The notes beneath the pieces are model-generated. The model ran no database searches. It was not told the DNA's origin and saw nothing but the letters and a program-made list of their open reading frames with translations. Positions 1-63,874 of a DNA stretch of 64,000 nucleotides are shown here, in pieces. The stretch covers positions 71,860,001-71,924,000 of the forward strand of contig NC_086108.1 of the NCBI RefSeq assembly GCF_963921235.1. The letters are read 5' to 3'. The stretch comes from Mobula hypostoma (taxonomy: Eukaryota). Both the position numbers and the translations under genes were made by a program. Positions within the stretch are counted from its first letter, which is position 1; every line of letters starts with the position of its first letter.

Positions 1-1450
1 TGGATGTGTTGAAAGACATTTTTAATCTGTTATTGTTACAGTCAGAAGTTCCCACCTGCTCCAAAAGGGCAACGATTATGCCAGTACCCAAAAAGAGCAG
101 GGTGAGCTGTCTTAACGACTATCATCCTGTAGCACTCACATTTATGGTGATTAAGTGCTTTGAAAGAGAGAGAGAGAGGCTGGTTATGGCTAGAATTAAC
201 TCCTGTCTCAGCATGGACTGGAAGCACTACAATTTGCCTATCACCACAATAGGTCTATGGCAGATGCAATCTTATTGACTACAGCTCAGCGCTTAACAAA
301 AGTATTCCTACAGTTCAGATCAAAGAGATCCAAAACCTGGGCCTCAGTACTGCCCTCTGCAACTGGATCTTCAGCTTCCTAACCAGAGGACCACAATGGG
401 TGGATTGGAAATAACATCTCCACTTCGCTGAGAATCAACACTGGTGCACCTCAGGGATATGTGCTCAGCCCACTGCTCTACTCTACACTCATAACTGCGT
501 AGCTAGGCACAGCACAAATGCCATCTATAATTAGCCGATGACACAATTATTGTTGGCAGAATTTCAGATGGTGACGAGTGGAAGTGCAGGAACCAGATTT
601 ATCAGTTGGTTGAGTGGTGTCACAACTTTGCTTTCAACATCAATAAGACCAATGAACTGATTGTGGACTTCAGAAAGTGTCAGACGAGGGAACACACACC
701 CGTCCTCATAGAGGGATCAGAAGTGGAAAGAGTGAGCAATTTCAAGTTCCTGAGTGTCAGTTTCTCTGAGGATCTATCCTGGGCCCAACATGTCAATGCA
801 CCTACAAAGGAAACACGACAGTGGCTGTATTTCATTAGGAATTTGATGAGACTTGGTATCACCAAAGACACTGGCAGATTTCTACAGATGTACTGTGGAG
901 CGTACTCTAACTGGTTGCATCACCGTCTGATATGAAGGGGGCGGTATTGCACAGGGTTGAAATAAGCTGCAGAGAGTTATAAACCTGGTCAGCTCCTTCA
1001 TGGGCACTAGCCTTCATAGTATCCAGGACATCTTCAAGCAGCGATGCCTCAGAAAGGCAGCATCCATCATTGAGGACCCCCATCCCCTCTTCTCATTGCT
1101 ACCATTAGGAAGGAGGTATAGAAGCTTGAAGGCACATACTCAATAATTCAGTAACAGCTTCTTCCCCTCTGCCATCTAATTTTTGAATGGAGATTGAATG
1201 CAAGAACACTACCTCAGTAACAAGAGAAAATCTGCAGATGCTAGAAATCAAAGCAATGCACACAAAATGCTGGGGGAGCTCAGCAGACCAGGCAGCATCT
1301 TTGGAAAAAGGAAAAAAAGACACTTGACTGTTTACTCTTTTCCATAGATGCTGCCTGGCCTGCTGAGTTCCTCCAGCATTTTGTGTGTAGCACTACCTCA
1401 CCACCGTTTATTTATTTTTGTGCTACCTATTTAATTTAACTATATATACA
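1..1450 (+). mobile_element. Rex1/Babar-type LINE, decayed RT region and 3' UTR (runs off window start)
   Basis: Broken frames give [52 protein letters not shown] and VDFRK..VERVSNFKFL..WAQH, typical of Rex1-clade RT; multiple frameshifts. Confidence 0.85.
1219..1390. mobile_element. Short palindromic Penelope-terminus-derived non-autonomous element
   Basis: Arm cacacaaaatgctgg..ctcagcag.ccaggcagcatct.tggaaaa is inverted against ttttccatagatgctgcctggcctgctgagttcctccagcattttgtgtg; flanked by direct repeat cactacctca (1207-1216, 1391-1400). Confidence 0.75.
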
Positions 1451-2150
1451 GTTTTTTCCTCACCGTATGGGTGGTGTGTATGTGAATGTTTCCCTCAACA
1501 ATCTTGGGCGGGTCCTCTACCAGAAGCCTGGGAGCTTGGTTTGAGGGTTTGGTGCAGTATGCTAGTAGTGCACTCTTCTGGACCGAGATCTCAGATGTTG
1601 TTCCCGGGATTTGTTGGAGCCACTCTCCCAGTCGAGGTGTCACAACCCCAAGTGCTCCTATCACCACCGGGGTTACTCTGGCGTTAACCTCCCACATCCT
1701 TTCTATCTACTCTTTCAAGACCTGGTATTTCTCCAGCTTCTCATATTCTTCCTTCCTGATTTACAATTAAAGTAAGGAATAGATTTCAAAGTCTAGAAAC
1801 AGAATCTGTTGAAGATGATAGCAATCATGTCGAAATGAAGTTTAACTATCTAAAGGATGCCTTGGTAGAATCAGCAAAGTCAGTGATTTCTAAAAAAGGA
1901 AAAAGCACTAAGAATAAATGGATGACAGATGAAATCAAAAATCTAATGGATGAAAGGAGATGGAAGAAAGCAAATCCTATAGAATGTAAGTCCTTAGATA
2001 AAAAAGTTAAAAGCTTATGTCAAAAAGCCAAAGAAGAATGGTTAAACCAGGAATTTGAGCAAATAGAGAGAATCCCTATTACTGATCCAAAAAGGTTACA
2101 TCAACAAATCAAGAATATCACTGGTAAAAAGCTCCTCTGTTCTTCAGGTA

Positions 2151-2280
2151 AACAACAGGAATTCTGTAGATGCTGGGAATTCAAGCAACACACATCAAAG
2201 TTGCTGGTGAACGCAGCAGGCCAGGCAGCATCTCTAGGAAGAGGTGCAGTCAACGTTTCAGGCCGAGACCCTTCGTCAGG
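2151..2280 (-). mobile_element. Single-arm Penelope-derived short element inserted in frame in the RTE ORF
   Basis: Nearly identical to the left arm of the 24516-24744 element; flanked by tcaggta at 2144-2150 and 2276-2282 (132-bp offset). Confidence 0.85.
2247..2280 (-). ncRNA. Minimal type I hammerhead ribozyme-like motif (5' strand of helix I truncated)
   Basis: Minus strand reads CUGACGA-AGG-GUCUCGG-CCU-GAAA-CG-UU-GACUG: both conserved core boxes, a 3-bp helix II and the palindromic ACGU in place of helix III, as in Penelope-associated hammerheads. Confidence 0.65.
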
Positions 2281-5260
2281 TAGATGTTTGAAAGCAAAGG
2301 ATGGTACCATTATCATGGAAAAAGATGAGATTATGAACAGGTGGACTGAGTATATTCAGGAATTGTTTGAAGACGATCGAGGCAAAAAACCAGAAACTAA
2401 GAAAAATATTGAAGGTCCAAGTATTTTAAAATCTGAAGTTCGCAATGCAATAAATAAAATGAAGAAAGGAAAGGCAGCAGGTCCTGATGAATTAGTAACA
2501 GAACAAATTATCACCCTTGTAGATTATGGAATTGAAAAACTTACTGATTTAATCAATGACATTTACGAGACTGGAATAATACCAGAAGAGATGAAAAAAT
2601 CAGTATTTATCACTCTTCCTAAGAAACCTGGAGCAAAAGAATGTGAATTACATAGAACCATAAGTTTAATGAGTCATATCACCAAGATACGTCTAAGAAT
2701 TTTGATGACAAGAGCTAAGAGTAAGATACAAGCTGAGATAGGTAAAGAACAACGTGGTTTTGTGAAAGACAAAAGTACAAGAAACGCAATATTGATGTTA
2801 AGGATACTATCAGAATGAGCTATTCAAGTGCAAAAAGATTTGTTTGTTTTATTGACTACACAAAAGCATTTGATAAAGTGAAGCACAATAAGTTATTTGA
2901 AATATTACAGAAAACTCTAGATTTAGATTCAAAAGACATCTGCCTGATCAGAAATCTGTACTGGGAACAGACTGCCGCTGTAAGGATAGATGGAGAAGTG
3001 AGTCAGTTTACGAAAATCAAGAGAGGCATTAGACAAGGGTGTGTTTTCTCCCCTGATTTATTTAACGTGTACAGTGAAACAATATTACAAAAAACAAGAG
3101 ACATCTTGGGAATCAAAGTTGGTGGTGAAAACATCAATAATTTCAGATATGCAGATGACACTGTGTTAATTGCAAGTATGGAGGAAGAACTACAAAACTT
3201 AATTTATACAATTGTTGAAGAAAGTGCAAAAACAGGTCTATCTATCAATTGCAAAAAGGCAGAATGTATGGTGATATCCAAAAAGAAGGAGAATCCTATC
3301 TGCAGGCTGAGAATAAATGAGGAAGACATAAAACAAGTAAAGAACTTTTGCTACTTAGGAAGCTGGGTGAGATCAGATGGCAGGTGCGACATGGACATCA
3401 AAAGAAGAATAGGGATGGCAAAAGACACCTTTACGAGAATGAAGAGTATACTGACCACTACTAGACTAGTCATGACAACCCGTCTCAGAGTACTGAAATG
3501 TTACGTTTATCCAGTTATGTTATATGGCTCAGAATGTTGGACAATACCTAGTAACATGAGGAAATGAATTGAAGCAGCAGAGATATGGTTTTTGAGGAGG
3601 ATGCAAAGAATATCATGGATGAAACGAATATCTAATGAGGATGTCATGAACAGAGCAAACACAAAAAGAGAAATAATGTATGAGATCATGAAAAGGCAAC
3701 GTAACTTCATTGGACATGTGATTAGGAAAGAGGATTTAGAGTGCATGGTAATTATGGGAAAGATTGAAGGGAAGAAAGCAAGAGGAAGACAAAGTCAAGT
3801 GATGATGGAGACAGCAGCCAGAGAACTAGAAATGAATACCAATGAATTGATCCACTTGACCCGCAACAGGAGTGTGTGGGACATGGCAGTCAAAGCTCAA
3901 ACTGGGCATTGCACCTGATGATGATGATGATGATGATGATGTTACTGTCATTTGGGATTGCCACATCTAATACTATTGCTTTCTTCTGTTCCTTGACCAG
4001 TATTACTATGTCAGGTTGCTTGGCCAGTACCTGCCTATCAGCCGGTGTTTAGAAGTCCCACGAGATCTTAGCTCTGTCATTTTCCACTACCTTCTCAGGA
4101 GTTTCCCATTTGGACTTGGGAGTGTCCAATCCATACTCAGTGCAGATGTTCCTGTGCACCATTCCTGCAACTTGGTTATGCCATTCAGTGTGTGCTGGTC
4201 CCCGCCTGCATCTTGCACCCTGCTACTACGTGCAGGATGATTTCAGCAGATTTCCTGTACAGTTTGCATCTTGGGTCTTGTCTGGTGTGGTAGAGCCCTG
4301 CTTCTATTGCTCTTGTGCTCAGCGTCTGTTCTTGTGCAGCCATGAGCAGTGCCTCTGTGCTGTCCCTCAGCCCTGCCATTTCCAGCCATTGGTAGGACTT
4401 CCTTATGTCAGCCACCTCAGATATCTGGTGATGGTACATCCCGTGCAGTGGCTTGTTCTGCCGTGGCCTCTGGTCCTCTGGCTCTGCTTCACCCACTTCC
4501 ATTTCCATATCTCCTGCATGCTGTCTGAGGTATTCTCCTAGCAGGTCATCTTAGGGGCCATCTTCTTGACATATTCCTGGATGTTTCACTTTTCTTCCAG
4601 AGCTGTGGCCCTGACACTTCCAAGTCCCCGTCCTCCTTTATTCTGGCTGGTGTACAGTTGCTTGACGTTGGACTCTGGATGGAATCCTCCATGCATTGTT
4701 AGTAGTTTCTGGGTCTTGATGTCAGCGGCTTTCAGTTTGTTCCTTGGCCAGCACACTATTGCGGCTGAGTTTCTGATGACTGGGAGAGCAAATGTGTTGA
4801 TGGCTCTGATCTTGTTCTTTCCATTCAGCTGACCTTTTAGGACCTGTCTCACTCTTCGTAGATACTTGGAAGTTGCAGCCTTCCTTGTGTCCTTATCATG
4901 GCTTCCATGTGCCTGCAGAATCCCCATGTAATTGTAACTGTCCTGTACATCTTGTACGTGGCCTTTGCCAACTCAGTTCCTTCAGTCTGGAGAAGTTTGC
5001 CTCTTTTCACGCCCTTGCGGCTGCACTTTTCGAGTCCCAATGACATCCTGATGTCTCTGCTGTACACCCTGGTCAGGTGGATTGGTGAGTCAATGTCTCT
5101 TTCATTTCTGGCATACAGCTTGATGTCATCCATGTACAGGAGGTTGCTGATGGTCACTGCACTCTTGAACCTGTACCCATATCCACTCTTTGAGATGATC
5201 TGGCTGAGGGGGTTCAAGCCTATTCAGAACAGGAGTGGGGACAGTGCATCACCTTGGTAT

Positions 5261-9645: not shown

Positions 9646-12431
9646 AGATTGGACTCCCTACTGAAACGACCTCTCACCCCTTCAGCATCGCAGCCATTGA
9701 CAGATGTCCCTTGGGGTCTGGGCCAGTTCAAGCCTGGTTGGAACTCACTGTGAACTCATCCAATTCCTCCTGATCAACTGACCCAGCACTCTGCTCACCT
9801 TGGTTACCTTTGGCTCTCCGCTCACAACCCTCTCTTCCCCTGGTCACCCGGTTCACTGCTGAGCTGGGGACCCACCTGCCTGCAGTCTCAGTTGACTTCA
9901 CCCCGTAAATCCGCGGAGACGGGAAAACCCTCGACCTCACCAAACTCCCAGAGGAAAACGTCGACTTTGCCATTGCCTTCAGTAAAAGGAGAGGCAGCAC
10001 TCTGCCACCCTCATAGACTTCACGACTGCACAGTTGACCTCCTCCCTCCTGAGACCCCAACCATGAATGACTACATCCCGGAAGTGCTACAGAACAACTC
10101 CGTTTGACCATCCCAGTTTACAGCCAGTGTAGGATTCTTCTTTGTTAAAAAGAAAGATGGGGGTCTCCGACCTTCCATTGACCACTGTGGGCTCAGTTGA
10201 ATTACCATTAAAAACCACCAGCCGCTCCCCTGGATGATAGCGCTTTTGAAGCACCCCGTGGGCTCAGATATTCACCAAACTGGATTTATGTAGCACATAT
10301 AACCTGATCTACACCTGCCGGGGGACGATTGGGAGACAGCTTTCATAACACCCACTGACCGCTATGAATACTCGGGTGATGTCTTTTGGATTTTCCAACA
10401 CTCCAGCTGTTTTCCAAGCCTTCAATAACAAGATCCTCTGAGATATGCTACACAAATATGTGTTCGTCTACCTCAATGATGTATTCATCTTATCCAAGAA
10501 TCTCCAAGGTCACATCTTCATGTCCATTCAGTCCTTCAGCATCTCCTTGAAAACCAACTCGCCAAGTTACTGCTCCTCTTACCTTCCTCTCCAATGCACT
10601 TACCTTGCTGATAACCTGGTTTGCTGACGCAGACCGCACTTTTGAGGAGCTCAAGAGGGGCTGAACCATTGCTACCATCCTCTGCCAACCAAACCCCTCC
10701 AGGCCTTCTGTGGTAGAGGTGAATGCATCTGACATGAGTGCTGGGTCCTTCCTCTCCCAGCAAGGAGTGGATTGGAAGATGCACCTTTGTGCCTTCCTCT
10801 CACGCAAGCTCAATCCTGAACAGCACTGTTATGGGCCTTGGAGAAATAGAGACATTGGTTGATGGGTAACATTGAAACACTGAACCTTTCCTGATCTGGA
10901 CTGACCACCAGAACCTCATATCGATACAACAGTCCTGCCAACTCAACCGCCATCAGGCTCGCTGCACCTTCTTCTTCGAGCAATTCAACTTCTCCATGTC
11001 CTACCAACCCGGTTCCAAGAAGACGAAGGCGGACGCCCTGTCACGACAGTTCAATCCAGCTGAAATGGAGACCGACCCTCAACCTATCATCCCATCCTCT
11101 CAGATCCCTGTTGCTGTCATCTGGGACCTTGAGAACCAGATCTGCCAGGCCCTCCAATATGAGCCTGGTCCTGCCAACTCACCTGACAACCTCATGCACA
11201 TACTTGAGGTCATGCACTGTGACGCACTCCAGTGGGCCAGGTCCCCACTCCCCACCCTTCTCCGACCACCCGGACGCACAATGGACTCTGTATTTTCTGC
11301 AATGCTGCTTCTGGCGGCACACCGTCATCACAAATAGACATTAGTTCATTGCTGCTGGCCCTCAGTGTGCCTGGTGCAATTTCTCTAATCAGCAGGCTTC
11401 TGGGCTCCTGTGGCCCCCTACCGGTCCCTCAACGCCTGTTGTCCCATATCGTCGTGGATTTCATCAGGGACTTGCCTCCTTCCCATAGGCCCATGGTGAT
11501 CATGACAGTGGTGGACTGGTTATCCAAAGTGGCCTACTTCATTGCCCTTCCCAATCTTCCGTCAGCCACTGAGACGACAAACCTGATTCTCCCACGTGTA
11601 GTTCATCGCTATGGTTTCCCTCGGGACATTGTGTTGGGTTGGCGTCCACAATTTGCCTCCCTGTTTCTGGCGAGCCGTCTGCTTCCCCCTCCACACCTCA
11701 GTGAGTCTGTCCTCTGGCTATCATCCGCAGACTCACAGACAGCCAGAAAGAGCCAATCTGCCATTGGAGACATTTCTGCAATGCTTTGCTGCCTCTAACC
11801 ATTCCACATGGCTGACCAGTCCTACAATCTACATACCTCCACTGCCACCGATAGGTCACCCTTTGAAATGCCCCACTGTCCCCGCGGAGGTTCTGTTATC
11901 CCGGGCCCTGGTTTACCGCTGCTAGAATGCTCGGAGGAGGGCACAGAGGGCCAGCCTGGCTGCCAACCACTCCTACTGTTGCTAGTCCAACCACCGTCGG
12001 CAGCCAGGGAGATTACTCCGGCCCGGGGAACGTGCTGACTGTCCACCCGAGATCTGCCCCTGCGCACCGACTCCTGCAAGCTCTCGTCCCGGGTCCCATC
12101 GCATCAATCCAGTCACTTACCGTCTCCATCTGCCACCGTCCCTCGGGATCACACCCACCTCTCGTGTCCTGTCTCAAGCCTGTTGTCTATGGAGCACTCA
12201 ACCCAAGCTGAGCCTGTGCCTCCAGAACAGAGTATGGTGGAAGGTGGTCCAGGGTACATGATTCGCCAGTTGATGGATTCACATCACCGTGGAAGGGGTG
12301 CCTGGTCAACCAGAAGTCTTGGGTGCCGTCCGGTTACACCTTTGATCCATCGATCATCAAGGAGTTCCTCTCAACCCATCAGATTGAGCTGGGCTGTTGG
12401 GGACTGACTGTGGAGGAGGGGAGGGGGTTCC

Positions 12432-12747: not shown

Positions 12748-12999
12748 TATTTTCCAGCTTTGTCAAATTTAGATAAAGCTGTAAGATGAGCAAATCTTTA
12801 GCAGCAGTACGAAGGAAAAGAGCAGTAAGGAGAGAGGTCTGTATCTGATGTAGATTGCCATGATCGAAGCAAAAGCAAAATTAAAAAAAATGGAAAATAA
12901 CAGTTGATACAGAGCAGTTCAGTGGCTTTGAGGGACAAGAGTGACAAATGTTGGGACTGCTTTGAAATAGAGAGGCAAAAATGAAAAAAAAATAGAAAA

Positions 13000-13086
13000 A
13001 GATGAAAATGCCTAGCAGGTCAGACAGAAACTGTGGAGTGAAAAACAGAATTACTGTTTCAGACCAGTGACCTTTAATCAGAATGT
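13000..13086 (-). mobile_element. Old Penelope-terminus-related fragment with a degenerate hammerhead-like motif
   Basis: Minus strand ctgattaaaggtcactggtctgaaacagta followed by ttttcactccacag..tctgacctgct, resembling the younger copies. Confidence 0.45.
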
Positions 13087-16214: not shown

Positions 16215-16720
16215 ATATCCAACCTGATGTCACCATTAAAAACTTCCTCTCCTTCTCTCTTTCAGCATTCCAAAAGAATTATTCTTTCTGGGACATCCTG
16301 GATCACTTTTTCATCTTTTGCACTGTTCTGTCCCCTTTTCATGGTGCTTTCACGTCTCATGGCAGGTGATGCAACACCTACCCTTACACCTCCTCTCTTC
16401 CTGCCATCCAGGGACTCAAGCATTTTTTTCTGGGTGAAGCAACAGTCTTCTGTTGGCTTCATGTACTCAATCTGGTGCTCTTTATCTGGCCTCATCTGGG
16501 AACCGGAAAGCAGACTGAGTGACCATATGGCAGAACACTTCCATTCAATCACTAAGGGTGACTCTGAGTTTACAGTTTCTGTCCGTTTAAATGCCCATCC
16601 CTTTCTACTTTGTCATTGGCCTCCAACGCTGTTCAATGAAGCTCAATTTATCCTTAAAGAATAACACCTCATCTTCTGCCTAAGCATGTTGCAACCTTCC
16701 AGACATAGTAATGAGTTCAG
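16215..16720 (+). mobile_element. Penelope-like element, decayed GIY-YIG endonuclease region
   Basis: MYSIWCSLSGLIWEPESRLSDHMAEHFHSI..TVSVRLN is a degenerate YCIRC..CGL.YIGET.RRL.DRFAEH..PVA.HFN; followed by EAQ..L.E.HLIF.L..LQP. Confidence 0.7.
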
Positions 16721-16721
16721 C

Positions 16722-17018
16722 ATACCATCAGGCTCAAGAACAGCTTCGACCCCAGTATTATAGGAGTATTAATGGTTCCCTAGTATGACATGATGCACTC
16801 TTGACCCCACAATTTATCTCATTGTTATCTTGCCCCTATTGATTACCTGTGCTACATTTTCTCTGGAACTATTCCACTTCATTCTGCGTTATTGTTTTAT
16901 CTTGTTCTACCTCAATACATTGTGTAAAGATCTGTTCTGCATGAACAGTACAGCAGACAAGCTTTTCACTGTATCTCAGTAAATGTGACAAAAATAAACC
17001 AATTCCAATTCTAATTCC
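16722..17018 (+). mobile_element. Rex1-type 3' end
   Basis: accatcaggctcaagaacagcttc (T.RLKNSF) then a UTR ending aataaaccaattccaattctaattcc. Confidence 0.6.
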
Positions 17019-17286
17019 AGTTTGTGATATCTAGCCTTTCTGGTCTTCATCCAATTCCACATCCTGCCTTCTGTTCTTTCTGTTTCTCCCCCACCAACGT
17101 CTGCTCACCATGCCCATTCCTCCCAGCTATTGGGAACTTCTAAACCCCAATTCCTTCAGTGCTACTTAGGACTTGTTTTATTTCTAACTTTACTCAGTTA
17201 AAAAGTTTAAAAAGTTTGTCTGTTTGGCGAGGTAAGTGGGTGAGTAGACTTATTTTTCCTGTTTCATTCGTGTAGAATTAGATAGC

Positions 17287-18222
17287 ATGCCTACAGGGTT
17301 AGTGCTTTGTTCAGGGTGTCAGATGCGGGAATCCTGGGAGACTTCCAGCCTCCCTGATGGCCACATCTGCGCCAGGTGCACTGAGTTGCAGCTCCTCAGA
17401 GACCGTGTTAGGGATCTGGAGCTGCAGCTTGATGACCCAGTGCTTATCAGGGAAAGTGAAGAGGTGATAGACAGGAGCTACTGGGAGGTAGTCATCCCTA
17501 GGCTACAGGAGTCAGAACACTGGGTCACTGTCAAGAGAGGGAAGGGAAATGCCCGGATAGTGGAGAGCACACCTGTGGCTGTCCCCCTCAGCAACAAATA
17601 TCTTGTTCTGGATGCTGTTGAGGGGGATGTCCTGACGGGGGACGCCCACGGTGAACGGGTCTCTGGCACTGAGCCTGGCGTTGTTGTACAGGAGAGAAGG
17701 AGGGTGAAGAGAAATGCGGTAGTCGTGGGGGATTCCATAGTCAGGGGAACAGACAGGAGACTCTGTGAGCCTGACAGAGATACCCGCATGGTGTGTTGCC
17801 TCCCAGGTGCCAGGGTACGGGATGTCTCGGATCAGGTCCTGAATATTCTAAAGGGGGAGGGTGAGCAGCCAGTTGTCTTGGTACATGTTGGTACCAATGA
17901 CATAGATAGGACAAAGGAGGAGGTCCTGAAGAGAGATTTCCAGGAGTTAGGAAGGAAGCTGAGAAGCAGGACCTCCAGGGTAGTAATCTCGGGATTGCTA
18001 CCTGTGCCACGTGCTAGCGAGGGCAAGAGTAGTCGGATCAGGCAGATGAATGCCTGGCTGAGAGACTGGTGTAGGGGGCAGGGCTTCAGATTCTTGGATC
18101 ATTGGGATCTCTACTGGGGGAAGTATGACCTGTTCAAAAAGGACAGGTTACACCTGAACCCGAAGGGGACCAATATCCTGGCGGGAAAGTTTAATAGAGC
18201 TGTTAGGGAGGGTTTAAACTAA
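17287..18222 (+). CDS. CR1 ORF1 protein (zinc finger, coiled coil, SGNH esterase)
   Basis: Uninterrupted 311 aa; CSGC...HICARC; heptad LQLLRDRVRDLELQL; SGNH blocks VVGDSIV, LPGAR, HVGTND and D.LHLN..G. Confidence 0.92.
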   Translation: MPTGLVLCSGCQMRESWETSSLPDGHICARCTELQLLRDRVRDLELQLDDPVLIRESEEVIDRSYWEVVIPRLQESEHWVTVKRGKGNARIVESTPVAVPLSNKYLVLDAVEGDVLTGDAHGERVSGTEPGVVVQERRRVKRNAVVVGDSIVRGTDRRLCEPDRDTRMVCCLPGARVRDVSDQVLNILKGEGEQPVVLVHVGTNDIDRTKEEVLKRDFQELGRKLRSRTSRVVISGLLPVPRASEGKSSRIRQMNAWLRDWCRGQGFRFLDHWDLYWGKYDLFKKDRLHLNPKGTNILAGKFNRAVREGLN

Positions 18223-18290
18223 TTTGGCAGGGGGATAGGAACTGGAATGATAGAGCGGAGGAAGGGGAAAACAGAAATAAATCTAAGATA

Positions 18291-21205
18291 GTGAGCAGTA
18301 AAGATGTCAGGAAAGACAGGCAGGTGATGGGGCAAATGTGTAGCCATTGGGATGAGTTGCAGTGCAATAAAGTTGCAGGGAAATCAAAGCAAAAAGTATC
18401 AAATACTGGTCTTAAGGTGTTGTACTTAAATGCACGCAGCATAAGAAATAAGGTGGATGATCTTGTTGTACAGCTACAGATTGGCAGGTATGATATTGTG
18501 GCCATCACTGCGACCTGGCTAAAGGATGCATGTCTCTGGGAGCTGAATGTCCAAGGATACACGGTGTATCGGAAGGATAGGAAGGTAGGCAGAGGGGGAG
18601 GCATGGCTTTATTGGTAAGAAATGATATTAAATCATTAGATAGAGGTGATATAGGATCGGAAGGTGCAGAATCTTTATGGGTTGAGCTAAGGCATAGCAG
18701 GGGTAAAAGGACCCTGATGGCAGTTATTTATAGGCCTCCAAACAGCTGCAGGGATGTGGACTACAAATTACAACAGGAAATAGAAAAGGCTTGTCAGAAG
18801 GGCAGTGTTATGATAATTGTGGGGGATTTTAACATGCGAGTAGATTGGAAAAATCAGGTTGGCACTGGATCTCAAGAGAGAGAATTTGTAGAATGTCTGC
18901 GAGATGGCTTTTTAGAACAGCTTGTTGTTGAGCCCACTAGGGGATCGGCTGTACTGGATTGGGTATTGTGTAATGAACCGGAGGTGATTAGAGAGATTGA
19001 GGTGAAAGAACCCTTAGGAGACAGTGATCATAACATGATTGAGTTCACTGTGAAATTAGAAAAGAGAAGCCGAAATCTGATGTGTCGGTGTTTCAGTGGA
19101 GTAAAGGAAACTACAGTGGCATGAGGGAGGAACTGGCCAAAGTTGACTGGAAAGAGACACTGGTGGGAAAGATGGCAGAGCAGCAGTGGCTGGAGTTTAT
19201 GCGAGAAATGAGGAATGTGCAAGACAGGTATATTCCAAAAAAGAAGAAATTTTCAAGTGGAAAAAGGATGCAATCGTGGTTGACAAGAGAAGTCAAAGCC
19301 AAAGTTAAAGCTAAGGAGAGGGCATACAAGAAAGCAAAAATTAGTGGGAAGACAGAGGATTGGGAAGTCTTTAAACCCTTACAAAAGGAAACCAAGAAGG
19401 TCATTAAGAGAGAAAAGATTAACTATGAAAGGAAACTAGCAAATAATATCAAAGAGGATACTAAAAGCTTTTTCAAGTATATAAAGAGTAAAAGACAGGT
19501 GAGAGTAGATATAGGACCGATAGAAAATGATACTGGAGAAATTGTAATGGGAGATGAGGAGATGGCAGAGGAACTGAACAAGTATTTTGCATCAGTCTTC
19601 ACTGAGGAAGACAGCAGGATACCGGACACTCAAGGGTGGCAGGGAAGAGAATTGTGCGCAGTCACAATTACGACAGAGAAAGTACTCAGGAAGCTGAATA
19701 GGCTAAAGGTCGATAAATCTCCTGGACCAGATGGAATGCACCTTCATGTTCTGAAGGAAGTAGCTGTGGAGATTGCGGAGGCATTAGCGATGATCTTTCA
19801 AAAGTCGATAGATTCTGGCATGGTTCCGGAAGACTGGAAGATTGCAAATGTCACTCCGCTATTTAAGAAGGGGGCAAGGAAGCAAAAAGGAAATTATAGA
19901 CCTGTTAGCTTGACGTCGGTGGTTGGGAAGTTGTTGGAGTCGATTGTCAAGGATGGGGTTACAGAGTACCTGGAGGCATATGACAAGATAGGCAGAACTC
20001 AGCATGGATTCCTTAAAGGAAAATCCTGCCTGACAAACCTATTACAATTTTTTGAGGAAATTACCAGTAGGCTAGACAAGGGAGATACAGTGGATGTTGT
20101 ATATTTGGATTTTCAGAAGGCCTTTGACAAGGTGCCACACATGAGACTGCTTAACAAGATAAGAGCCCATGGAATTACAGGAAAGTTACATACGTGGATA
20201 GAGTGTTGGCTGATTGGCAGGAAACAGAGAGTGGGAATAAAGGGATCCTATTCTGGTTGGCTGCCGGTTACCAGTGGTTTTCCACAGGGATCAGTGTTGG
20301 GGCCGCTTCTTTTTACATTGTACATCAACGATTTGGATTATGGAATAGATGGCTTTGTGGCTAAGTTTGCTGACGATACGAAGATAGGTGGAGGGGCCGG
20401 TAGTGCTGAGGAAACGGAGAGTCTGCAGAGAGACTTGGATAGATTGGAAGAATGGGCAGAGAAGTGGCAAATGAAGTACAATGTTGGAAAGTGTATGGTT
20501 ATGCACTTTGGCAGAAAAAATAAATGGGCAGACTATTATTTAAATGGGGAAAGAATTCAAAGTTCTGAGATGCAACGGGACTTGGGAGTCCTTGTACAGG
20601 ATTCCCTTAAAGTTAACCTCCAGGTTGAGTCGGTAGTGAAGAAGGCGAATGCAATGTTGGCATTCATTTCTAGAGGAATAGAGTATAGGAGCAGGGATGT
20701 GATTTTGAGGCTCTATAAGGCGCTGGTGAGACCTCACTTGGAGTACTGTGGGCAGTTTTGGTCTCCCTATTTAAGAAAGGATGTGCTGACGTTGGAGAGG
20801 GTACAGAGAAGATTCACTAGAATGATTCCAGGAATGAGAGGGTTAACATATGAGGAACGTTTGTCCGCTCTTGGACTGTATTCCTTGGAGTTTAGAAGAA
20901 TGAGGGGGGACCTCATAGAAACATTTCGAATGTTAAAAGGCATGGACAGAGTGGATGTGGCAAAGTTGTTTCCCATGATGGGGGAGTCTAGTACGAGAGG
21001 GCATGACTTCAGGACTGAAGGGCGCCCTTTCAGAACAGAAATGCGAAAAAATTTTTTTAGTCAGAGGGTGGTGAATCTATGGAACTTGTTGCCACGGGCA
21101 GCAGTGGAGGCCAAGTCATTGGGTGTATTTAAGGCAGAGATTGATAGGTATCTGAGTAGCCAGGGCATCAAAGGTTATGGTGAGAAGGCGGGGGAGTGGG
21201 ACTAA
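18291..21205 (+). pseudogene. CR1 ORF2 (APE endonuclease plus reverse transcriptase), split by one frameshift near 19060
   Basis: EN motifs YLNARS, IYRPP, VGDFN, LDWVL and SDH; RT motifs [34 protein letters not shown] and KFADD; one extra A in the 19060-19063 run would fuse 18291-19124 with 19082-21205. Confidence 0.92.
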
Positions 21206-21901
21206 ATAGGATAAAATGGATCAGCTCATGATAAAACGGAAGAGCAGACTCGATGGGCCGAATGGCCTACTTCTGCTCCTTTGTCTGATGGTCTTATGGT
21301 CTTATGATGAAAGCTCAATTTTTCTCTCTCTGCAGATGCTACCTGAATTATTGAGTGTTCCTGGCATTTTATGCCTCTCAGTAAACCTGTAAACTTCTTT
21401 TGGTCGCTAGCATCAAATACTCTTATTTGTTACTCTTACATTCCTCTGTTAAATATTGATCACATGGGGATACAAGTAGAACCAAAATGTATATTTTGTA
21501 TTTCCATTTTTTCAGCTGGTCACTTTAAGAAAGCTTAAAGAAATTAAAAATTAGGTACTCTAATATTTTGAATGAAATAGGCTAAAATATTTACAAACAG
21601 ATGGAAAGTGTTGCAAAATTTTATGTTAATGGTAGCAATGTCAGTTTAATTTATGAACAGTAGCAGTAGCATAATTCCTATTAAAGTGAACATATTTTCT
21701 TTAAATAAAAACCATCATAATAGGATCCAGATTGTACACCAAATTTTGCAGCATTCTTTTTCTTGAAAGAGTAACTTGTAAAGAGCTGTCATGAAGACTT
21801 CCTCATTTGGTGAAATTATTTTAGTAAATCCTTTGTTCTGATCTTGATAAAGAATGCCTTATATCAAATGTTCTTTACATTAAATTTTCATTCTGTTATG
21901 T

Positions 21902-23965: not shown

Positions 23966-24515
23966 GAATGATGTCATATGTACACAGACAAACATATATA
24001 TATATATATGAGGTAAGCTGCATTCTATATCGAGTTAGAGTTTATGGAAGCAGAGTGATGGATTTAATATATCAGTAATATTTGAGTTATATTGTAAAAT
24101 CTTGTTTGATTAAGCATTCTGTGTTGTTTAAATAATTCATTCATTATAAATCTGATGCAAAAAGATGTTCTCTTAAATCCATTGGGATTTCAATGAGTTT
24201 GCTTTTGCGTCAACTATCATTAATAGAAGCAACAGATAATGATTCCAAGTGACCCTTTGATCCAACGATGCCTAAAATCAGAAAGGATCAACCTTTTACT
24301 GACAGGATTCCCAATAGACATACAGGGCCCTGATCACAAAGGTGTCAGTGCTGGGGCACAAACCCTTCCCAATTTTTGGCATCGGGTATATTGACCATAT
24401 TCGGGGAAAGTACAAGACTCCCAGATATAAAATGTAGCTTATGCTGCTGTTTTAACCTAAGTGTAACGTGTCGTTCAAAACAAAACTTTTAAAGCTGTAG
24501 TCATCATAAAGAGGC

Positions 24516-24744
24516 AAACATGAGGAATTCTGCAGATGCTGGAATTTGAAGCAACATACATCAAAGTTGCTGGTGAACGCAGCAGGCCAGGCCGCATCTC
24601 TAGGAAGAGGTACAGTCGACATTTCAGGCTGAGACCCTTTGACAGGATGAAGGGTCTCGGCCTGAAACGTCGACTGTACCTCTTCCTAGAGATGCTGCCT
24701 GGCCTGATCTGCTGCGTTCACCAGCAACTTTGATGTGTGTTGCT
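24516..24744. mobile_element. Palindromic Penelope-derived short element with 16-bp TSD
   Basis: Arms ~24550-24639 and ~24650-24744 are inverted repeats; perfect TSD gtcatcataaagaggc at 24500-24515 and 24745-24760; hammerhead-like GATGA-AGG..CCT-GAAA-CG-TC-GACTG at 24646-24676. Confidence 0.88.
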
Positions 24745-24760
24745 GTCATCATAAAGAGGC

Positions 24761-24940
24761 TATGATGTGCAGATGCTGAAAATCCGAAATAAAAATGGAG
24801 CATCCTAGAACTGCTCAGCACACCAGGCAGCACCTGTGGAAATAAAACAAGGTTAACATATTAGCAACGATGAAAGACTTTGATCTGAAATGACAAACAC
24901 ATGGCGAGATCTATTGACTATTTCTTGAACTTTTCCGTCT
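24761..24940. mobile_element. Older, diverged relative of the same short-element family
   Basis: tgcagatgctgaaaatccgaaataaaaa..ctcagcacaccaggcagcacctgtgga parallels the younger copies. Confidence 0.55.
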
Positions 24941-25676: not shown

Positions 25677-26053
25677 TGAAGTGAATCAGGTACTCCAGTA
25701 GATTTGAGAGGATCAGGTACTAGAGTAGATTTGAGAGGATCAGGTACTCCTGTAGATTTCAGAGGATCAGCTACTCCTGTAGATTTGAGAGAATCAGGTA
25801 CTCCTGTAGATTTGAGAGGATCAGGTACTAGAGTAGATTTGAGAGGATCAGGTACTCCAGTAGATTTGAGAGGATCAGGTACTAGAGTAGATTTGAGAGG
25901 ATCAGGTACTCCTATAGATTTGAGAGGATCAGGTACTAGAGTAGATTTGAGAGAATTGGTTACTCCTGTAGATTTGAGAGAATCAGATACTCCTGTAGAT
26001 TGGAGAGGATCAGGTACTCCTGTAGATTTGAGAGGATCAGGTACTCCACTAGA
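25677..26053. repeat. 27-bp minisatellite, about 14 copies
   Basis: Unit ttgagaggatcaggtact(cct/cca/aga)gtagat. Confidence 0.95.
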
Positions 26054-26489: not shown

Positions 26490-29400
26490 CAGGACCCCAC
26501 AATTCACTAAAACCAGCATTGTGAGCCTGTCCGGAGCTTGGCTGTGCTGAGCCACCTGGCTCAGGCCCGATGTTTCATGGGTGGAGGAACAGCAGAGACC
26601 TCTGGCTCATCCAGAGATGTGTTGACACACTCGTGGTCATGTTGTGACAAAAGAGACATGGTAGCGGAATCCTCCAAGCCTTGGTGGGCCAGTTTAAGGT
26701 GATCTACCAAAATATATTCAGGTTTACTTCACCTATCTGTGATAGAAGTCTTTTCTCTCCTTTCCAAAACATGGAATGGGCCATCACAATGGGGCCTAAG
26801 GGGATGTTGGTGCGCATCATAGCAAACAAAACAAACAAGGCAGGATGTAGGTCAACACGAAGCCAAAAGAGCTGTACAGCATAATGGGAGGTGGGAATAG
26901 GTGCAAAGGAATTGAATTTACTGAGGAGAGAGGAATGCTGTTGAGAGGACGACCAGGCGGTTAAGGGATAAAATCACCTGGCCCTCCTCACAGCTGCCCC
27001 TATATCAACTCAGATACGGATGACCTCAGGTCCTCTTTTGGAGCTGTTCTGAGCCCTAAAAGGTCCTGCTGGAGATGATCATGCCAAGATGCATCAGTCA
27101 GGGAAGCCCTCAGAGCAGCCTTAAAGGAGCAGTGAAACCACTCGCATAGGCCATTGGACTTCATATCATACGCTCTGGTGTGATGTAGTCTAACGCCGAA
27201 GTTCTGAGCCAATGCAGCCCAGAGGTCTGAAATGAATTGGGGACTGCGGTCAGAGGAAATATCAGATGGGGTGCCAAACCGAGCAACCCAGGTGCTCATG
27301 AACACCCAAGCCACATCTGTGGCCATCGTGGATGCTAAAGGGATAACCCCTGGCCATTTGGTGGTACCGTCCACTATGGTGAGGATATGTATGAAACTGC
27401 GGGAGCAAGGAAGAGAACCGATAAGGTCCACATTGACACGGTCAAACCATCGCTCAGGAACCTCAATAGGTGCCAATGGTGTCTGGACATGACAGGTAAT
27501 TTTTGCCCACTGGCACTCCACATAGTCTGCAGTCCAATCACCCATGTCCTTTCTGTGTCCTTGCCATACGAACTTCCGTGCATCCATTTTCTGTGAGGCC
27601 TTTCGGTGCAGATGCAAGAGGCCATGTGTGGAGACAAAAGCAGTTCACCTCCAGTTTGCAGACAATATGGGGCGAGGGTGACCGGTTGAGACATCACACA
27701 GGCGAGAAACCCCAGCTTGCCGGAACTTAATGTCAGCAAACTGCAGGCCCTTAACTGCTGTTCGGTAAACCAGAACCTCTGGGTCAGGAGCTTGGTCAGC
27801 TGCTATGCCGGCATCGTCAGCCCCTATGTGTATGGCCTCAATGGCTGGCCGTGAGAGGCAATCAGCTACGGCATTATTTTCCCCCTGATATGTTGTGTAC
27901 CAGTGTGGAACTCTGATATGTAAGCCAATTGGTGTTGCTCCCGTGTAGACTAAGGGTCTGATAATTAGGTCATCACACGCACGAGGGGTTTCTGGTCAAC
28001 AAACACTGTGAAATGGTGACCCACTAGAAGAAAACAAAAATGCCTGACAGCCAGATAGAGACTGAGTAGTTCACAGCCAAATGTGCTGCACTTCCTTTTG
28101 GGGGAGATAGACCTGCTGGCTGAAGAAGGTGAATGGCTGCCATACCCCTCTGACCAGCTATTCATGCACAGCACCCACAGCATCATCTGAAGCGTCAGTA
28201 GTCATGGCTATAGGAGCTCTAGGGAGTTGGTGTGCCAGTAGGGTCACATCAGAAAGAGCCCATGTCTACTGACCAGTCAAGCACTTGATTAGGGGTTTTG
28301 CCTTTACAGAGGGAGCATATGTTCATCAGCTCATAGAATGAAGCAGTGGTAGAAATTCACCATGCCTAAAAACTACTGTCGTCATTTAGTAGTGTGGGGT
28401 GATGGGAAATCCATAGAAGTGGCTACCTTTGATTGTAGCGGCTTGCACCTTGCGTGGAGATGTGATGGCCGAAAAAGTCAAAGGTTGACAACCCGAACTG
28501 GCATTTAGTAGGTCAAATAATTAACCCGTGTTGGTTTAACCCCTCAAAAAGTGTGCGGAGATGAGATATGTCTTCAGACTTGGATGTACTGGTGTCAAGT
28601 ATGTCATCCGGGTAAACAAAAAGAAAGTCTAACTATCTTAATACAGAGTCCTTCAGCTGTTGGAAAGTCTGTGCTACATTTTTCAGCCCAAACGGCATGC
28701 GCAGAAACTCAAAAAGGCCAAACAAGGTTATCACAGCTTCCTTAGGAATGTTCTTCGAGCCCACAGGCACCTTATGGAAACCCTTAACTAGACTGACTTT
28801 GGATAAAATTAACTTTCCAGCCAAAGGTGCTGAATAGTCTTTGATGTGTGTGACTGGGTAATGAATAGGGGTGGTGGCCTCGTTAAGGTGTCAGTAATCG
28901 CCACGTGGGTGGCAACCACCATCAGACCTAGGAACCATATGAAGGGGCAAAACCCAGGGGCTATTCGACTGGCATACATTTCCGAGTCTTTCCATGTTGG
29001 CAAACTCAGCCTTCGCAGTCGCCAGCTTTTCTGGGTCCAGTCTATGTGTGTGGGCATAGGCTGTGAGCTAGTTGTAGAAATGTGGTGCCCAACCCCATGT
29101 CTCGTGACTGTAGTGGAGAATGTTGGGTTCATGAGGTTTGGGATAATCACCCAGCAGTCGAGTTAACTCACATGGCACTTGACAGAGTTCTTGTGGGGGA
29201 CTTACTGGGGGAACAGGGTAACAACCCAACATCCTTGACATTCACAAGTTGGCAGTTCTTAAGATTGACTAATAGTCCTAGGGCACACAGGAAATCTGCA
29301 CTGAGCAGAGGTCTAACCACTTCAGCCAGGATGAAGTCCCATGAATAATGTCATCTATTGAAGCACAGCGTCACCCGTAATGTCCTGCAGGTCTGGATCC

Positions 29401-30059
29401 TGCTGCCATTAACAGCCTACAGTGAGTTTTATTGCTCTTTGCCTTCTCATCAATAGGAGACTCTGGCAGCACACTCACTTGAGCACCCGTGTCACCCAGG
29501 AAACATGGCCCAGAAAGGGTGTCTGTAATGAACAGTAGATGACCCTGGTAGCTGGAACTCACAGTGTTCACAGACCTCTGATGTCCCGATGCACTGGCAT
29601 TGTCAAAGCTACAAGGTAGTCGGCACTTCCTAGCGTTCGTACCAAAGCGAGCACAGTAAAAATACAGGCCTGGCATCATCTATTTCACAGTCACAGGTAT
29701 CCTTATGATGGGGGTCTTGCTGACTGGGCTTACTGAGGTAGAGAAAGGAGGAGGAATGATGCACCACTGCCCTGCTGAGTGTAGACCATCAGCCATTTCA
29801 GCAAGCTCCCTATAGTCCTTCATGGGTGCATTAGTGAGGGCTATGTGAACTTGATCAGGCATTTGATGCTTGAAAAGTTCTTTAAATCTAGTCAGGTGGA
29901 AGAAGGCAATATACATGAGGTTTAATAGAGACAGGAGAGACAGCATGTGGTCCATTAGTTCTGACGTCTTTGCATCACCGAGGCCGGGACTTAGCTCAGA
30001 CTGTGATAGTCCAAAAGTCTGTAAAAGATGAGTTTTCAGTGATCTGTATTTATTGTGTT

Positions 30060-33232: not shown

Positions 33233-34310
33233 AAGAATTAGTGCTGGGATTAAAGTTGTTTACAATTTATAGTAATCATTCAGAATTAGAAGCTAAAAGC
33301 ATTGTTTCTAAATTTGTTAATGACAACTAATCAGTGAGGCTGGCAGAGGGGAGGTGCTCCGAGGAAGAGGGTTGATAGTCCATATGAACAAGATTGGGAA
33401 GAAATGAGTAATATGCACAAAATGCTGGAGGAGCTCAGCAGGTTAGGCAGCATCTATTGAAAGGAATAAAGATGTGACATATCGGGTGGAGACCTTTCAT
33501 CTGAACTGGAAAGGAAAGGGGGAAAAGCCAGAATAACGTGGGGGAGGGGAAAGATTCAAGCTAGAAGGTGATAGGTGAAAGCAGGTGAGCGGGAAAGCTG
33601 GAGGGTGGGGGAGGGGGTATGAAGTGAGAGGCTGGGAGGTGATAGGTGGAAAAGATAAAGGGCTGAAGAAGAAGGAATCTGATAGGAGAGGAGTGAATCA
33701 TGGGAGAAAGGGAAGGAGGAGGGACACCAGGGGGAGGTGTTAGGCAGGTAAGGAGAACAGAAGTAGTAATAGGGGAACCAGAATGGGGAATGAAATAATC
33801 GAGAGGGAGGAGGGGGGAAGAACGTACCAGAAGTCAGAGAAATCAATCATAGTCCGGTCTATGAAGTCCGCATTCCGGTTCACGGTCCGGTCTGTGGACT
33901 CAGGACTCCGGGTCTTCCAGCTGTCCCTCGTTTGGGTGAGTTAATCATAGACACCTGATTCCCATCTTGGGGCTTGGAACATAAGTAGCCTTGGGATTGA
34001 TTGTGGACTGCTGGATTGTCTTGTCAGTTCCCCCTGCAGCAACCTGCTGATGGAAGGCTAGTGAAACTATTTGTGATCTCTAGGCCTGGTTGGAGGACCA
34101 CTGCTTCATGGAGCCTTGTTGCCACTTGTTGGAGTAGTCTTTGTGGTATGGATTTGGCTGTTTCCCAGCCCAGCTGGGTGGCTGTCAGCCACTCTGAGCT
34201 AGGTTGGGATCTGGCTGTTTCTGTAGGCAGCGGAGGTTGCTGGCTGTAACTGTGACTTGGAACCCTGAAGCAGAGATGGAACTGTCTGTTGTTCTTTGGT
34301 GTTTGTCTCT

Positions 34311-47700: not shown

Positions 47701-48370
47701 CTTGGAGGAGATGTGATTAGTATGGAGAGACAGAGCCAGCTGACTCACCTGTAAGGATGTAAGCCTTTCAGAGAAATGAGAAGAGTGAATGCAAGTCAGT
47801 TGGTTAGGTAGTTCCACGGCCTCCTGGTGACAGCAATCAATACTCAGACATGATACCAAAATGCTCATTCTAATGAGTGAAGTTAGCAGTGTGAGGAACT
47901 TAAACGACCAAACATGATGCTTATTTTCACGCCCCAGGCTATGTTCCTGTGTCTCAGGCTTATCGATGATCAAATACTCACGTGGGCATCCGTTTTGCCA
48001 CATGCATGCACCTTTATACCATGGTCACAAGGGGATAGTTATGAACCATGGCAGTCAAGATCTTGCCTTGAGGACTAATGTGCTAGCATCTGCCAGATCC
48101 CCAAAATATCTCTGGCTCTCCTGAACTGGTCCTGTGATAAAGAGGGTGATACCAGTAATGACCTTGGTAGCTTGGTAGCAGGATTGCACTAGGGAACAGC
48201 TGGAAATCACACCTATTATAAGAGCCTGAATCTCCTGAGGACCTTAGGCATGCAACAGAAAGCTCAGGTTGGCCACTGCGGACAGACTGCAGATGCCCTG
48301 TGAGGTTTTGGTGGTGGGATGGTCAAAGAGAATCTTTGATAGGGTGAGACCAAATGAGTTGGGCCTCATC

Positions 48371-48790
48371 TTAACGGAGCTGGAGGCCACAAACAGAAAG
48401 GTCAGAGTGGGAGTAGAGTAGTGGATTAAAGAAGACTAGAGGCTCGGAGTTGTTCCTGCTATTTGAACTTGAAGGCTCTGCAGAACGATCATCCAATCTG
48501 CAATTGTTTTCGCCGATGCAGAAGACCATTCTGTGCGCACCAAATGCAATCATTGCTTCACCTGGAAAAACTGTTTTAGTCCCTGGATGATGGGAAGGGG
48601 AGAGGTGAAAGGGCAGGTGTTGTTCTCCTGTGGTTGCATGGTGAAGTATCATGAGTGGGAAATGACAGGTAAGGAGAGAAGTGCGGACCAGGGAGTATCC
48701 CTTGTATATGTTGAAAGGTGTTGGTAGTAGATAGGTGGAGATAGAATATTTTTGTACCTGGAAGAAACTGAGAAGGACAATAAATTGATT
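48371..48790 (-). mobile_element. Penelope-like GIY-YIG fragment
   Basis: CIGENNCRLDDRSAE..PLVFFN..SHSDLSVCGL resembles YIGET.RRLGDRFAEH..PVA.HFNS.SHS..D.SV.GL. Confidence 0.65.
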
Positions 48791-49099: not shown

Positions 49100-49235
49100 C
49101 ATCAGATGAACTCTGAGGAACAGTCTCAAATCTGAACCCTGAACTGTTTCTCTTTCCACAGATGCTGACTGGCCTAGTGATTTTCCCGGCATTTTCTGTT
49201 TTATTTCAGATTGGCAGCATCAGCAATTTTCTGCT
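49100..49235 (+). mobile_element. Old Penelope-terminus-related short element
   Basis: ctgagga..ctgaac..tttccacagatgctgactggcct..gcattttctgttttatttcagatt.gcagcatc.gca parallels the right arm of the palindromic family. Confidence 0.55.
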
Positions 49236-62065: not shown

Positions 62066-62257
62066 CAACAATAGGGCAATCCTGCAGTACGATTATTTTT
62101 CATTCTTTGTGCCAATAGTAAGTCTTTTTACATGGCATAAACATTTATTGTTAACTGTTTCTGTAAATACTATTTAACAATTGTTTTATTAAAACCCAGC
62201 TGCAGTGGAGATGGTTCAGCCAAATTTCTTGAAGGATGAATCAGCTCTGTTTAATAC

Positions 62258-62473
62258 AAAACACACAAAATGCTGATGGAATGTAAGCTGTTGCCCTTCC
62301 ACCCTGATAGTGGCTCCATTGTGGTCTTCCCTCTTCCTTTCTCGTCTTGAAGAAGGTTCTTGGCCTGAAACGTTGAATGTTCATTCATTTGCATGGATGC
62401 TGCCTCCTGAACTCCTCCAGCATTTTGTGCGTGTTGCTTTGGATTTTCAGCATCTGCAGAATTTCTTGTGTTT
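62258..62473 (+). mobile_element. Penelope-terminus-derived short element with a degenerate hammerhead
   Basis: Short left arm acacacaaaatgctg; TTGAAGA-AGG-ttcttgg-CCT-GAAA-CG-TT at 62347-62374; right arm ending cagcatctgcagaatttcttgtgttt. Confidence 0.7.
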
Positions 62474-62501: not shown

Positions 62502-63874
62502 CTAGGGTTGGGTATTCAGTGATATAATGGAAGGATTATGCTCATTCCGGCTTGCACCTTCTGCTTGCCCCGTGTGGGATTTCCATGGTGACATTAACAA
62601 CCTGTAACCACAATGGGTTACACTAAGTCCTTGGCCTGACTGACCGGCTGCCCTGCAAAGCAGAGCAGTTTGCACACAGCAACTAGACCTCAGAAGGAAG
62701 ATCTTGTGATCTCACTACAGGATTTCCCTGTTGGCCTTCACATGTCCCTGACGTCCACACTACAACATATGAGCGTGGAAGTCAGCATGGTGCTGAGCTT
62801 TGTGAAGAGCAGCCCTTCAAGCAAGCAAAATGTAAGTTTATTTCAGCCTATGGAATAATACTACTACAGTCATCCTGTTCAGTATCTTTCACAAATACTA
62901 TCAGCAGCTGTTTAAGAACAGACCACTAGAGATTACTTATTTTTATACTAATTCTTATCTCCTGACTTCAATTAAGAAGGTTCAACGACATTATTTATTT
63001 TCTGTTCCATGAATTTTGATTTCCTCTAACAACAATCACATGAGGAACACTAATAAATGCCTGGTTCATTTAAATTAATTTAATGTTTAACTACAGTATG
63101 AGAATAATTGAAATACACAAAGCTGCATTCATACTTCCCAAAATGTGAACGTCAAAACAGCCTGTTTCATGCTCTAAAAATTAACTAACTATATTCCAAT
63201 GGCATTCAGAATGTTCATTAATATTGAGAAAAATGTTTTTGAAATAACTGTGGTGATCATGATTGAAATGCCAGAATGATAATGATAAAGAAAAACAAAA
63301 GCTTTCCGGAATGGTTGTGGTTAATGGAGGAGCTGGATGATTGCTGCTTTTGGTATCCATTTTTTAATCAGTTTGATTTTGCTGCATTTTATTTTGACAG
63401 AATCATTTAATGTAAGTTGTTGATGCAGTTCTGAAGCTTTGAAAAGTTTTCAGTGTTGTTGCATGCAAATGTTACCCTTTGAGGTCATCAGCTTCATGGC
63501 TTGACATGCCATTCAATCCAATTTTGTGCTCTGCATATTCTGTTCTTCTGCATTTGCAAGGCTTTGCCAGTATATAATGAACAATGAATAGCTTCACAAT
63601 GTAACAAGAGTGTTCACTTCTAAAAGCATCAACCGAATTTTTCATAGTATAGAGTCCGGGAAGTGCAAACATGTCACCTCAAAACTTCATAAAGAATCCT
63701 GATGCAGGGTTTTGTCCCAAAATGTTGATAATTACTATCATCGATGCTGCGTTCCTCCAGAAGGCTGTCTGTTGCTCCATAGTCTCCTGTGACTTCACTT
63801 CTTAAATCTAGTCTATCCCCATAGAATTGTTCCCCATGTGGCATCATGCCCAATCTGGATAAGGTACCTTTCAC
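62502..63874 (-). other. Candidate host exons (63678-~63874, 63476-63547, 62502-62652), product unknown
   Basis: Non-repetitive; GT/AG boundaries give mutually compatible phases; no recognisable protein similarity. Confidence 0.25.

Follow-up and report, generated by a model that had tools for sequence, protein, structure and literature searches.

A 132-bp insertion carrying a minimal hammerhead motif is probably the 5'-truncated terminal module of a Penelope-like retrotransposon

The window analyzed here (the whole stretch of DNA, 64,000 nucleotides in length) contains a broken LINE reading frame, which we take to be RTE-like, and within it a short insertion carrying a hammerhead motif. The features of this locus are the following:

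1760..3567, plus strand: host of the insertion, a broken LINE ORF (recognized from its ORFs and from an RVT_1 match, E 3e-23, in 2746-3564)
2144..2149, plus strand: TCAGGT, present again at 2276-2281; either a 6-bp duplication of the target or a 5-nt microhomology with the CCTGA of the element
2150..2281, minus strand: insertion of 132 bp net, delimited by the empty-site joint; probable 5'-truncated terminal module of a Penelope-like element (hammerhead core, downstream block of about 65 nt, and tail)
2150..2184, minus strand: optional tail, the stretch of about 34 nt that separates the two preferred 3' ends (from loose ends and the arms of the window)
2247..2279, minus strand: minimal type I hammerhead motif (from sequence and core score), with the 5' strand of helix I absent
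Parts of the motif, minus strand: CUGACGA; helix II region, 2272-2260; GAAA; ACGU palindrome, 2256-2253; predicted cut between 2252 and 2251; 3' strand of helix I, 2251-2247

The limits of the insertion were obtained by comparing positions 2000-2450 with the contigs of four public runs (X1, X2, X12 and X14; 4 of the 23 listed), of which X14 is guessed to be RNA, the other three being DNA runs. The empty site is recognized by a joint from 2143 to 2276, which skips 132 letters, with 6 ambiguous letters, and is found in 2, 4, 6 and 0 contigs of X1, X2, X12 and X14, respectively. The insertion starts at 2150, a refinement of the 2151 of the original prediction. The empty-site joints come from paralogous copies of the host LINE, and no contig across the filled site was found in any of the four runs compared; as a result, the insertion is undatable beyond its few majority differences (3 among the 40 variant rows listed, of 88).

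Two explanations account for the presence of TCAGGT on both flanks: either it is a 6-bp target duplication, with the element beginning at the CGA of the core, or a truncated cDNA annealed to the target via CCTGA. The CUGA of the core is therefore of element or of target origin, and it is family sequence in either case. The insert is open in the frame of the host ORF (1760-2818), to which it adds 44 codons and no stop. Exaptation was rejected because the host ORF is broken downstream, at 2816-2818, and the read-through is taken as chance.

By direct reading, minus-strand positions 2279-2247 are CTGACGA-AGGGTCTCGGCCT-GAAAC-GTT-GACTG. The intact core that had been claimed there was confirmed letter for letter, with 12 of the 12 core positions, and the ACGU palindrome said to replace helix III is present at 2256-2253 (positions 15.2-16.2). 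The 5' strand of helix I is lost in this copy, again as claimed, with only 2 of 5 pairs left, and for this reason the 2150-2281 copy is predicted to be inactive. It bears a U at the cleavage position and a G-U pair at 10.1-11.1, where site G (see below) has a G-C pair. Across nine arms of the family described below, a register of helix II with a bulged A (23 of 27 pairs) fits about equally well as the unbulged register that had been proposed (20 of 27 pairs).

On its own, the motif is just modestly unlikely: our descriptor (core, helix II of at least 3 bp, paired 15.2-16.2, UH) matched once in the window, at 2279-2247, and matched at least once in 10 of 200 shuffles. No Rfam hammerhead family matched the window or the locus, and folding of the monomer as a single strand gave neither a hammerhead fold nor unusual stability (z +0.81), the absence of the fold being expected since the motif is minimal. 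Together with the TCAGGT on both flanks, these observations are compatible with the intact core being an accident, i.e. with CUGA coming from the duplicated target and the rest being merely hammerhead-like. We regard such an accident as extremely improbable, because eight other arms of the window carry the core (8-11 of the 12 positions each) independently of the TCAGGT target, and because contigs in all four runs continue past 2280 into the complement of helix I. Pattern scans for the motif gave no hit in metagenomes and none in viral contigs; a shorter pattern hit 34 metagenome loci, none of which extends past 20-24 letters, and these were put down to chance.

A profile built from eight arms was then used to search the window at a threshold of E<0.05, with the reversed window as a control. 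It detected 12 arms at 10 sites, including 4 arms outside the training set, as against none in the reversed window, showing that the repeat family is not due to chance. Besides the 2150-2281 copy, the sites are as follows:

24516..24744, both strands: site A, head-to-head inverted pair with a 16-bp duplication (24500-24515 and 24745-24760)
1219..1390, both strands: site B, inverted pair without the hammerhead core, with a long and a short 3' end and a 10-bp duplication (1207-1216 and 1391-1400)
62294..62472, plus strand: site C, older copy that extends about 50 nt beyond the core on its upstream side; a weak inverted arm lies at 62253-62307
33406..33860, minus strand: site D, older copy whose core (33503) is decayed; about 350 nt of pyrimidine-rich sequence lie ahead of it
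49113..49233, plus strand: site E, old copy, back to back with coding remnant 1 (see below), with about 400 nt between them
12985..13081, minus strand: site F, old copy
63698..63772, plus strand: site G, weak old copy (E 0.039)
24765..24887, minus strand: site H, old copy, absent from the original list of motifs
21308..21376, plus strand: site I, old partial copy that immediately follows a long LINE (about 17200-21307), outside the training set (E 3.5e-5)

The six further motifs of the original prediction all lie where it had placed them: C3 is at 24645 (minus), 62347 (plus), 33503 (minus), 13081 (minus) and 49113 (plus), and the arm at 24646 (plus) is truncated within the core. The arms are 72-92% identical to the 2150-2281 copy, in agreement with the proposed existence of copies of several ages, and each has a defect as anticipated, helix I having at most 3 of 5 pairs in nine of nine arms. 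An Rfam match to mir-3926 at site A (44 bits, cut-off 82) was discarded as a mere reflection of the inverted pair.

Very many contigs of the four public runs fall on the module, although this contig depth is not a copy number, and they carry the part of the motif that the 2150-2281 copy lacks. Indeed, loose ends at 2280 (388, 567, 397 and 113 contigs of X1, X2, X12 and X14, respectively), read along the element strand, start with (U)AGUC in X1, X2 and X14 and with CAGUC in X12. In the four runs they pair with the GACU(G) that follows the cut site, so that the family has a helix I of 4-5 bp, as the original prediction required. Judged from its sequence, the family motif is thus a complete minimal type I hammerhead, and its assignment to the Penelope kind is supported by the presence of the core, the palindrome and the family helix I. 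The cleavage position is a C in 79, 83 and 95% of the contig depth in X1, X2 and X14, respectively, and in 29% in X12.

The conservation of the motif is less distinctive. In seven arms of the window, the GAAACGTC block has 43 of 56 majority letters versus 175 of 231 for the downstream block, and the 5' core has 28 of 49, a value probably lowered by alignment end effects; conservation of the core across the window arms is thus not clearly above that of the downstream block (40 of the 88 contig variant rows being listed). Within the ACGU palindrome, changes of the CpG account for about 2-21% of the depth per position across runs; in the three DNA runs (10-21%) they are no less frequent than at a CpG outside the motif (2212-2213, 8-10% in X1), which would fit neutral decay after insertion. 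The downstream block at 2200-2232 (minus) is conserved as the core is, in old and young copies, and is a candidate for a protein-binding signal or a signal for the start of reverse transcription. Loose ends at 2274 in X2 comprise 74 contigs with a core variant, CUGCUGA (C in place of A6), which suggests that a subfamily with a defective core has spread.

The copies have two preferred 3' ends. Loose ends at 2150 come from 213, 285, 193 and 31 contigs of X1, X2, X12 and X14, respectively, and others lie at 2183-2185 in X1, X2 and X14 (among the 24 loose-end rows listed, of 915). The same long and short 3' ends, 33-35 nt apart, are found on the arms of the window, and sites A and B have the long 3' end on one arm and the short one on the other: at site A, the left arm (minus) has the long 3' end and begins 2 nt ahead of C3, and the right arm (plus) has the short 3' end and begins at G5. 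Since two 3' ends at this distance match the tail and the two start sites of reverse transcription of Penelope-like elements (PLEs), they were counted in favor of a Penelope origin.

As far as can be told from their anatomy, the copies bear the insertion marks published for endonuclease-bearing PLEs (Craig et al. 2021, PMC8557442; Arkhipova et al. 2013, PMC3846280): truncated 5' ends, a neighboring inverted arm that is itself 5'-truncated, an optional tail of 30-40 bp on one arm, and target duplications, of about 10 bp in those elements. A microhomology 5' junction is also described for an insertion into a LINE (PMC3846280). Unlike in the published elements, most copies here keep only the last 70-130 nt, and their 5' ends partly cluster at helix I. 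We consider it probable that the 132-bp insertion represents the end of a Penelope-like retrotransposon, namely its terminal module (pseudo-LTR and tail) in 5'-truncated form, and that the reverse transcriptase and endonuclease of that element made the copy.

The original prediction had likened the family to retrozymes, whose tandem units are cut by the hammerhead into monomers, circularized, reverse transcribed and reinserted. Non-LTR retrozymes are indeed non-coding and share with the module a type I hammerhead and a kinship with PLE pseudo-LTRs (Cervera & de la Pena 2020, PMC7229834; Li et al. 2026, bioRxiv 10.64898/2026.07.22.740005), and they are reported in the one chondrichthyan genome sampled (bioRxiv 10.64898/2026.07.22.740005). 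In the window, by contrast, the module shows neither tandem units nor cleavage-defined monomer ends: it is in none of the ten tandem arrays, the pairs are inverted rather than head to tail, and the predicted cut site lies inside the copies. A monomer released by cleavage would have GACUG at its start and GAAACGUC at its end, whereas the copies have the core at their 5' end and run 100 nt past the cut site. Moreover, the motif is minimal, whereas described retrozymes mostly have canonical motifs (PMC7229834). A retrozyme origin is therefore very unlikely, and that part of the prediction is not supported. Ends of units are not set by the cleavage site; only site B, whose right arm begins about 2 nt ahead of the predicted cut site, begins near it. 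Both arms of site B (1300-1335) begin within a few letters of that position, a point in favor of retrozymes, and site B could be a copy of cleaved RNA, albeit a single insertion only. One tandem repeat of the window, at 25685-26053, has a 27-bp unit in 13.7 copies and is open in frames on both strands.

The 5' ends of the copies are more heterogeneous. Among the seven arms with a placeable 5' end, three start within about 3 nt of C3: the 2150-2281 copy and both arms of site A. Similarly, of the 12 joint rows listed (of 86), 7 leave 2279/2280 after no more than 2-4 additional letters. The consensus of the loose ends at 2280 has an agreement of about 0.4 over 30 letters, which is low beyond about 9 nt upstream. 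On the other hand, contig joints have partners scattered inside the module (2173, 2193, 2194, 2210, 2211, 2221, 2245 and 2246), and sites C and D have a 5' extension with shared sequence: the first 45-55 nt upstream of site D are homologous to site C (1 of 300 shuffles reached the score). The rest of the pyrimidine-rich sequence ahead of site D is presumably the 3' UTR of the element. Joints between opposite strands occur in 3 of the 15 rows listed, the 2194-2280 joint being one of opposite strands. The loose part has a median length of 58-106 letters at 2280 as compared to 255 letters for the 3' ends, and the consensus of the X12 loose ends at 2280 resembles the sequence upstream of site D; both observations point to a situation in which many copies likely continue into further repeat sequence while a share of them stops at helix I. 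Because 5' ends cluster at helix I, their pattern is not one of purely random truncation.

This clustering bears on the possibility that the module of about 135 nt is a separate, non-autonomous, SINE-like family, with a transcript of its own starting from helix I and mobilized in trans by Penelope proteins. The 5' ends close to C3, the joints that leave 2279/2280 and the low agreement further upstream all speak for such a family, as do the very many contigs on the module (not a measure of copy number) and the existence of non-autonomous PLE derivatives (PMC8557442; bioRxiv 10.64898/2026.07.22.740005). Against it stand the shared upstream sequence of copies C and D and the scatter of the other 5' ends within the module; in addition, copies that begin at helix I lack an evident promoter, so that each would presumably be a dead end. 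Importantly, an autonomous transcript starting near helix I would yield identical clustering; in Drosophila virilis, the Penelope transcript starts within the upstream pseudo-LTR (PMC2377424). We therefore find a separate family unlikely. The corresponding claim of the original prediction survives in a weaker form on the strength of those 5' ends that cluster at helix I, while the variable 5' ends argue against the family as it had been proposed.

One possible, if doubtful, scheme is that the short copies favor a 5' boundary in the 5' strand of helix I, and not at the cut site, because reverse transcription is primed in the upstream pseudo-LTR of a Penelope transcript (or on a dedicated short RNA) and runs off at an RNA end just before the ribozyme. 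Were this scheme true, the element would mass-produce hammerhead-headed modules of about 135 nt recording its RNA start in vivo, and the few copies that begin at GACUG (site B) would be a record of germline cleavage by the ribozyme. Directly ahead of the helix I strand (33504-33535, minus, and loose ends at 2280) lies a pyrimidine tract that ends in CAG and resembles a 3' splice site, and the intron of D. virilis Penelope is described as ending at helix I (PMC4209133). The copies keep the AG of this tract; thus, no splicing is seen.

We also looked in the window for coding sequence that could be related to the module. Two decayed remnants were found:

16340..16720, plus strand: remnant 2, decayed coding sequence resembling, by eye, the linker and GIY-YIG endonuclease of Neptune-type PLEs; upstream of site I, on the same strand
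48370..48650, minus strand: remnant 1, likewise decayed coding sequence, with homology to remnant 2

The homology of the two remnants is clear (score 132, as compared to a maximum of 43 upon shuffling; 0 of 300 shuffles). Both follow, by eye, the Cys linker and the 'YxIxC..C...YIGET..RL..RF.EH' pattern of Neptune rows in a supplementary alignment (PMC8557442), and they lie in an orientation matching that of sites I and E. Downstream of remnant 2, on its strand, come another repeat, a pyrimidine-rich spacer that ends in CAGTT, the long LINE and finally module I, which begins with TGATGAAAG. Searches of the remnants against Pfam, PHROGs, PDB sequences and protein databases gave no real match (the best Atlas match, 0.85, is without family), and two protein matches of remnant 1 were rejected as driven by internal repeats. 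The fold model was unusable (pLDDT 43) and was not taken to a fold search. Neither the comparison of the spacer (17010-17200) with the sequence upstream of site D (121 of 300 shuffles) nor that of the start of site D with the end of remnant 2 (229 of 300 shuffles) was significant, and no intact Penelope ORF joined to this subfamily was found. The link between the module and a Penelope protein, based as it is on likeness by eye, is thus suggestive only. The LINE at 17200-21307 (plus), which we assume to be CR1-like, is near full-length and has two long ORFs as well as a short tandem tail at its 3' end; it appears to have inserted right at the hammerhead of an old Penelope-like copy.

From the anatomy of the copies and the cited papers, the following course of events can be proposed. 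A Penelope-like protein would bind its own RNA and nick the target; the cDNA would start at one of two sites, about 70 and about 100 nt downstream of the hammerhead cut site; and reverse transcription would copy through the uncleaved ribozyme and stop early, a second cDNA sometimes being attached head to head. In the case of the 2150-2281 copy, the truncated cDNA would have annealed to the target via CCTGA. In the parent element, the minimal hammerhead may cleave only as a dimer or with the help of a protein. That the copies span the cut site is expected if the template is unprocessed RNA. The Poseidon element of Anolis (Frangieh et al. 2024, PMC11167929) provides a parallel on both counts: two start sites of reverse transcription downstream of the hammerhead define its tail, and its template in vitro is mainly the uncleaved RNA. 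It differs in that it belongs to the Penelope/Poseidon clade and has been tested biochemically, whereas the remnants found here are Neptune-like by eye.

The motif itself is close to the minimal type I hammerheads that have been described in the PLE repeats of fish, reptiles and amphibians, and more generally in metazoan PLE pseudo-LTRs (Cervera & de la Pena 2014, PMC4209133). It shares with them a CUGANGA/GAAA core, a helix I of 4-5 bp, a palindromic 15.2-16.2 without helix III, and a possible extra nucleotide between 9 and 10.1. As here, the genomic copies are mostly single or on opposite strands, and they are interpreted by these authors as probably truncated PLEs. By contrast, helix II has 3-4 bp here versus 7-8 in their Schistosoma families, and G10.1 pairs with U in the window copies of this subfamily, in place of the conserved C. 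No cartilaginous fish names were found in the available text of that paper or in two of its supplement files. The insertion is thus likely a truncated PLE end with a hammerhead, for which this class already offers published examples, and not a new kind of mobile RNA. Literature searches listed no paper devoted to this module family or to the clustering of 5' ends at helix I.

The window thus adds a further family to those already known to tie minimal hammerheads to Penelope-like elements, in a genome in which such ends are very abundant. The 5' ends of thousands of short copies would constitute a fossil record, readable by a genome-wide count, that bears on whether PLE hammerheads cleave in vivo and on where the template RNA begins. 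Among the other repeats of the window, decayed coding fragments resembling those of LTR retrotransposons, and presumably integrase-like, lie at 10876-12407 (plus) and 27000-30057 (minus).
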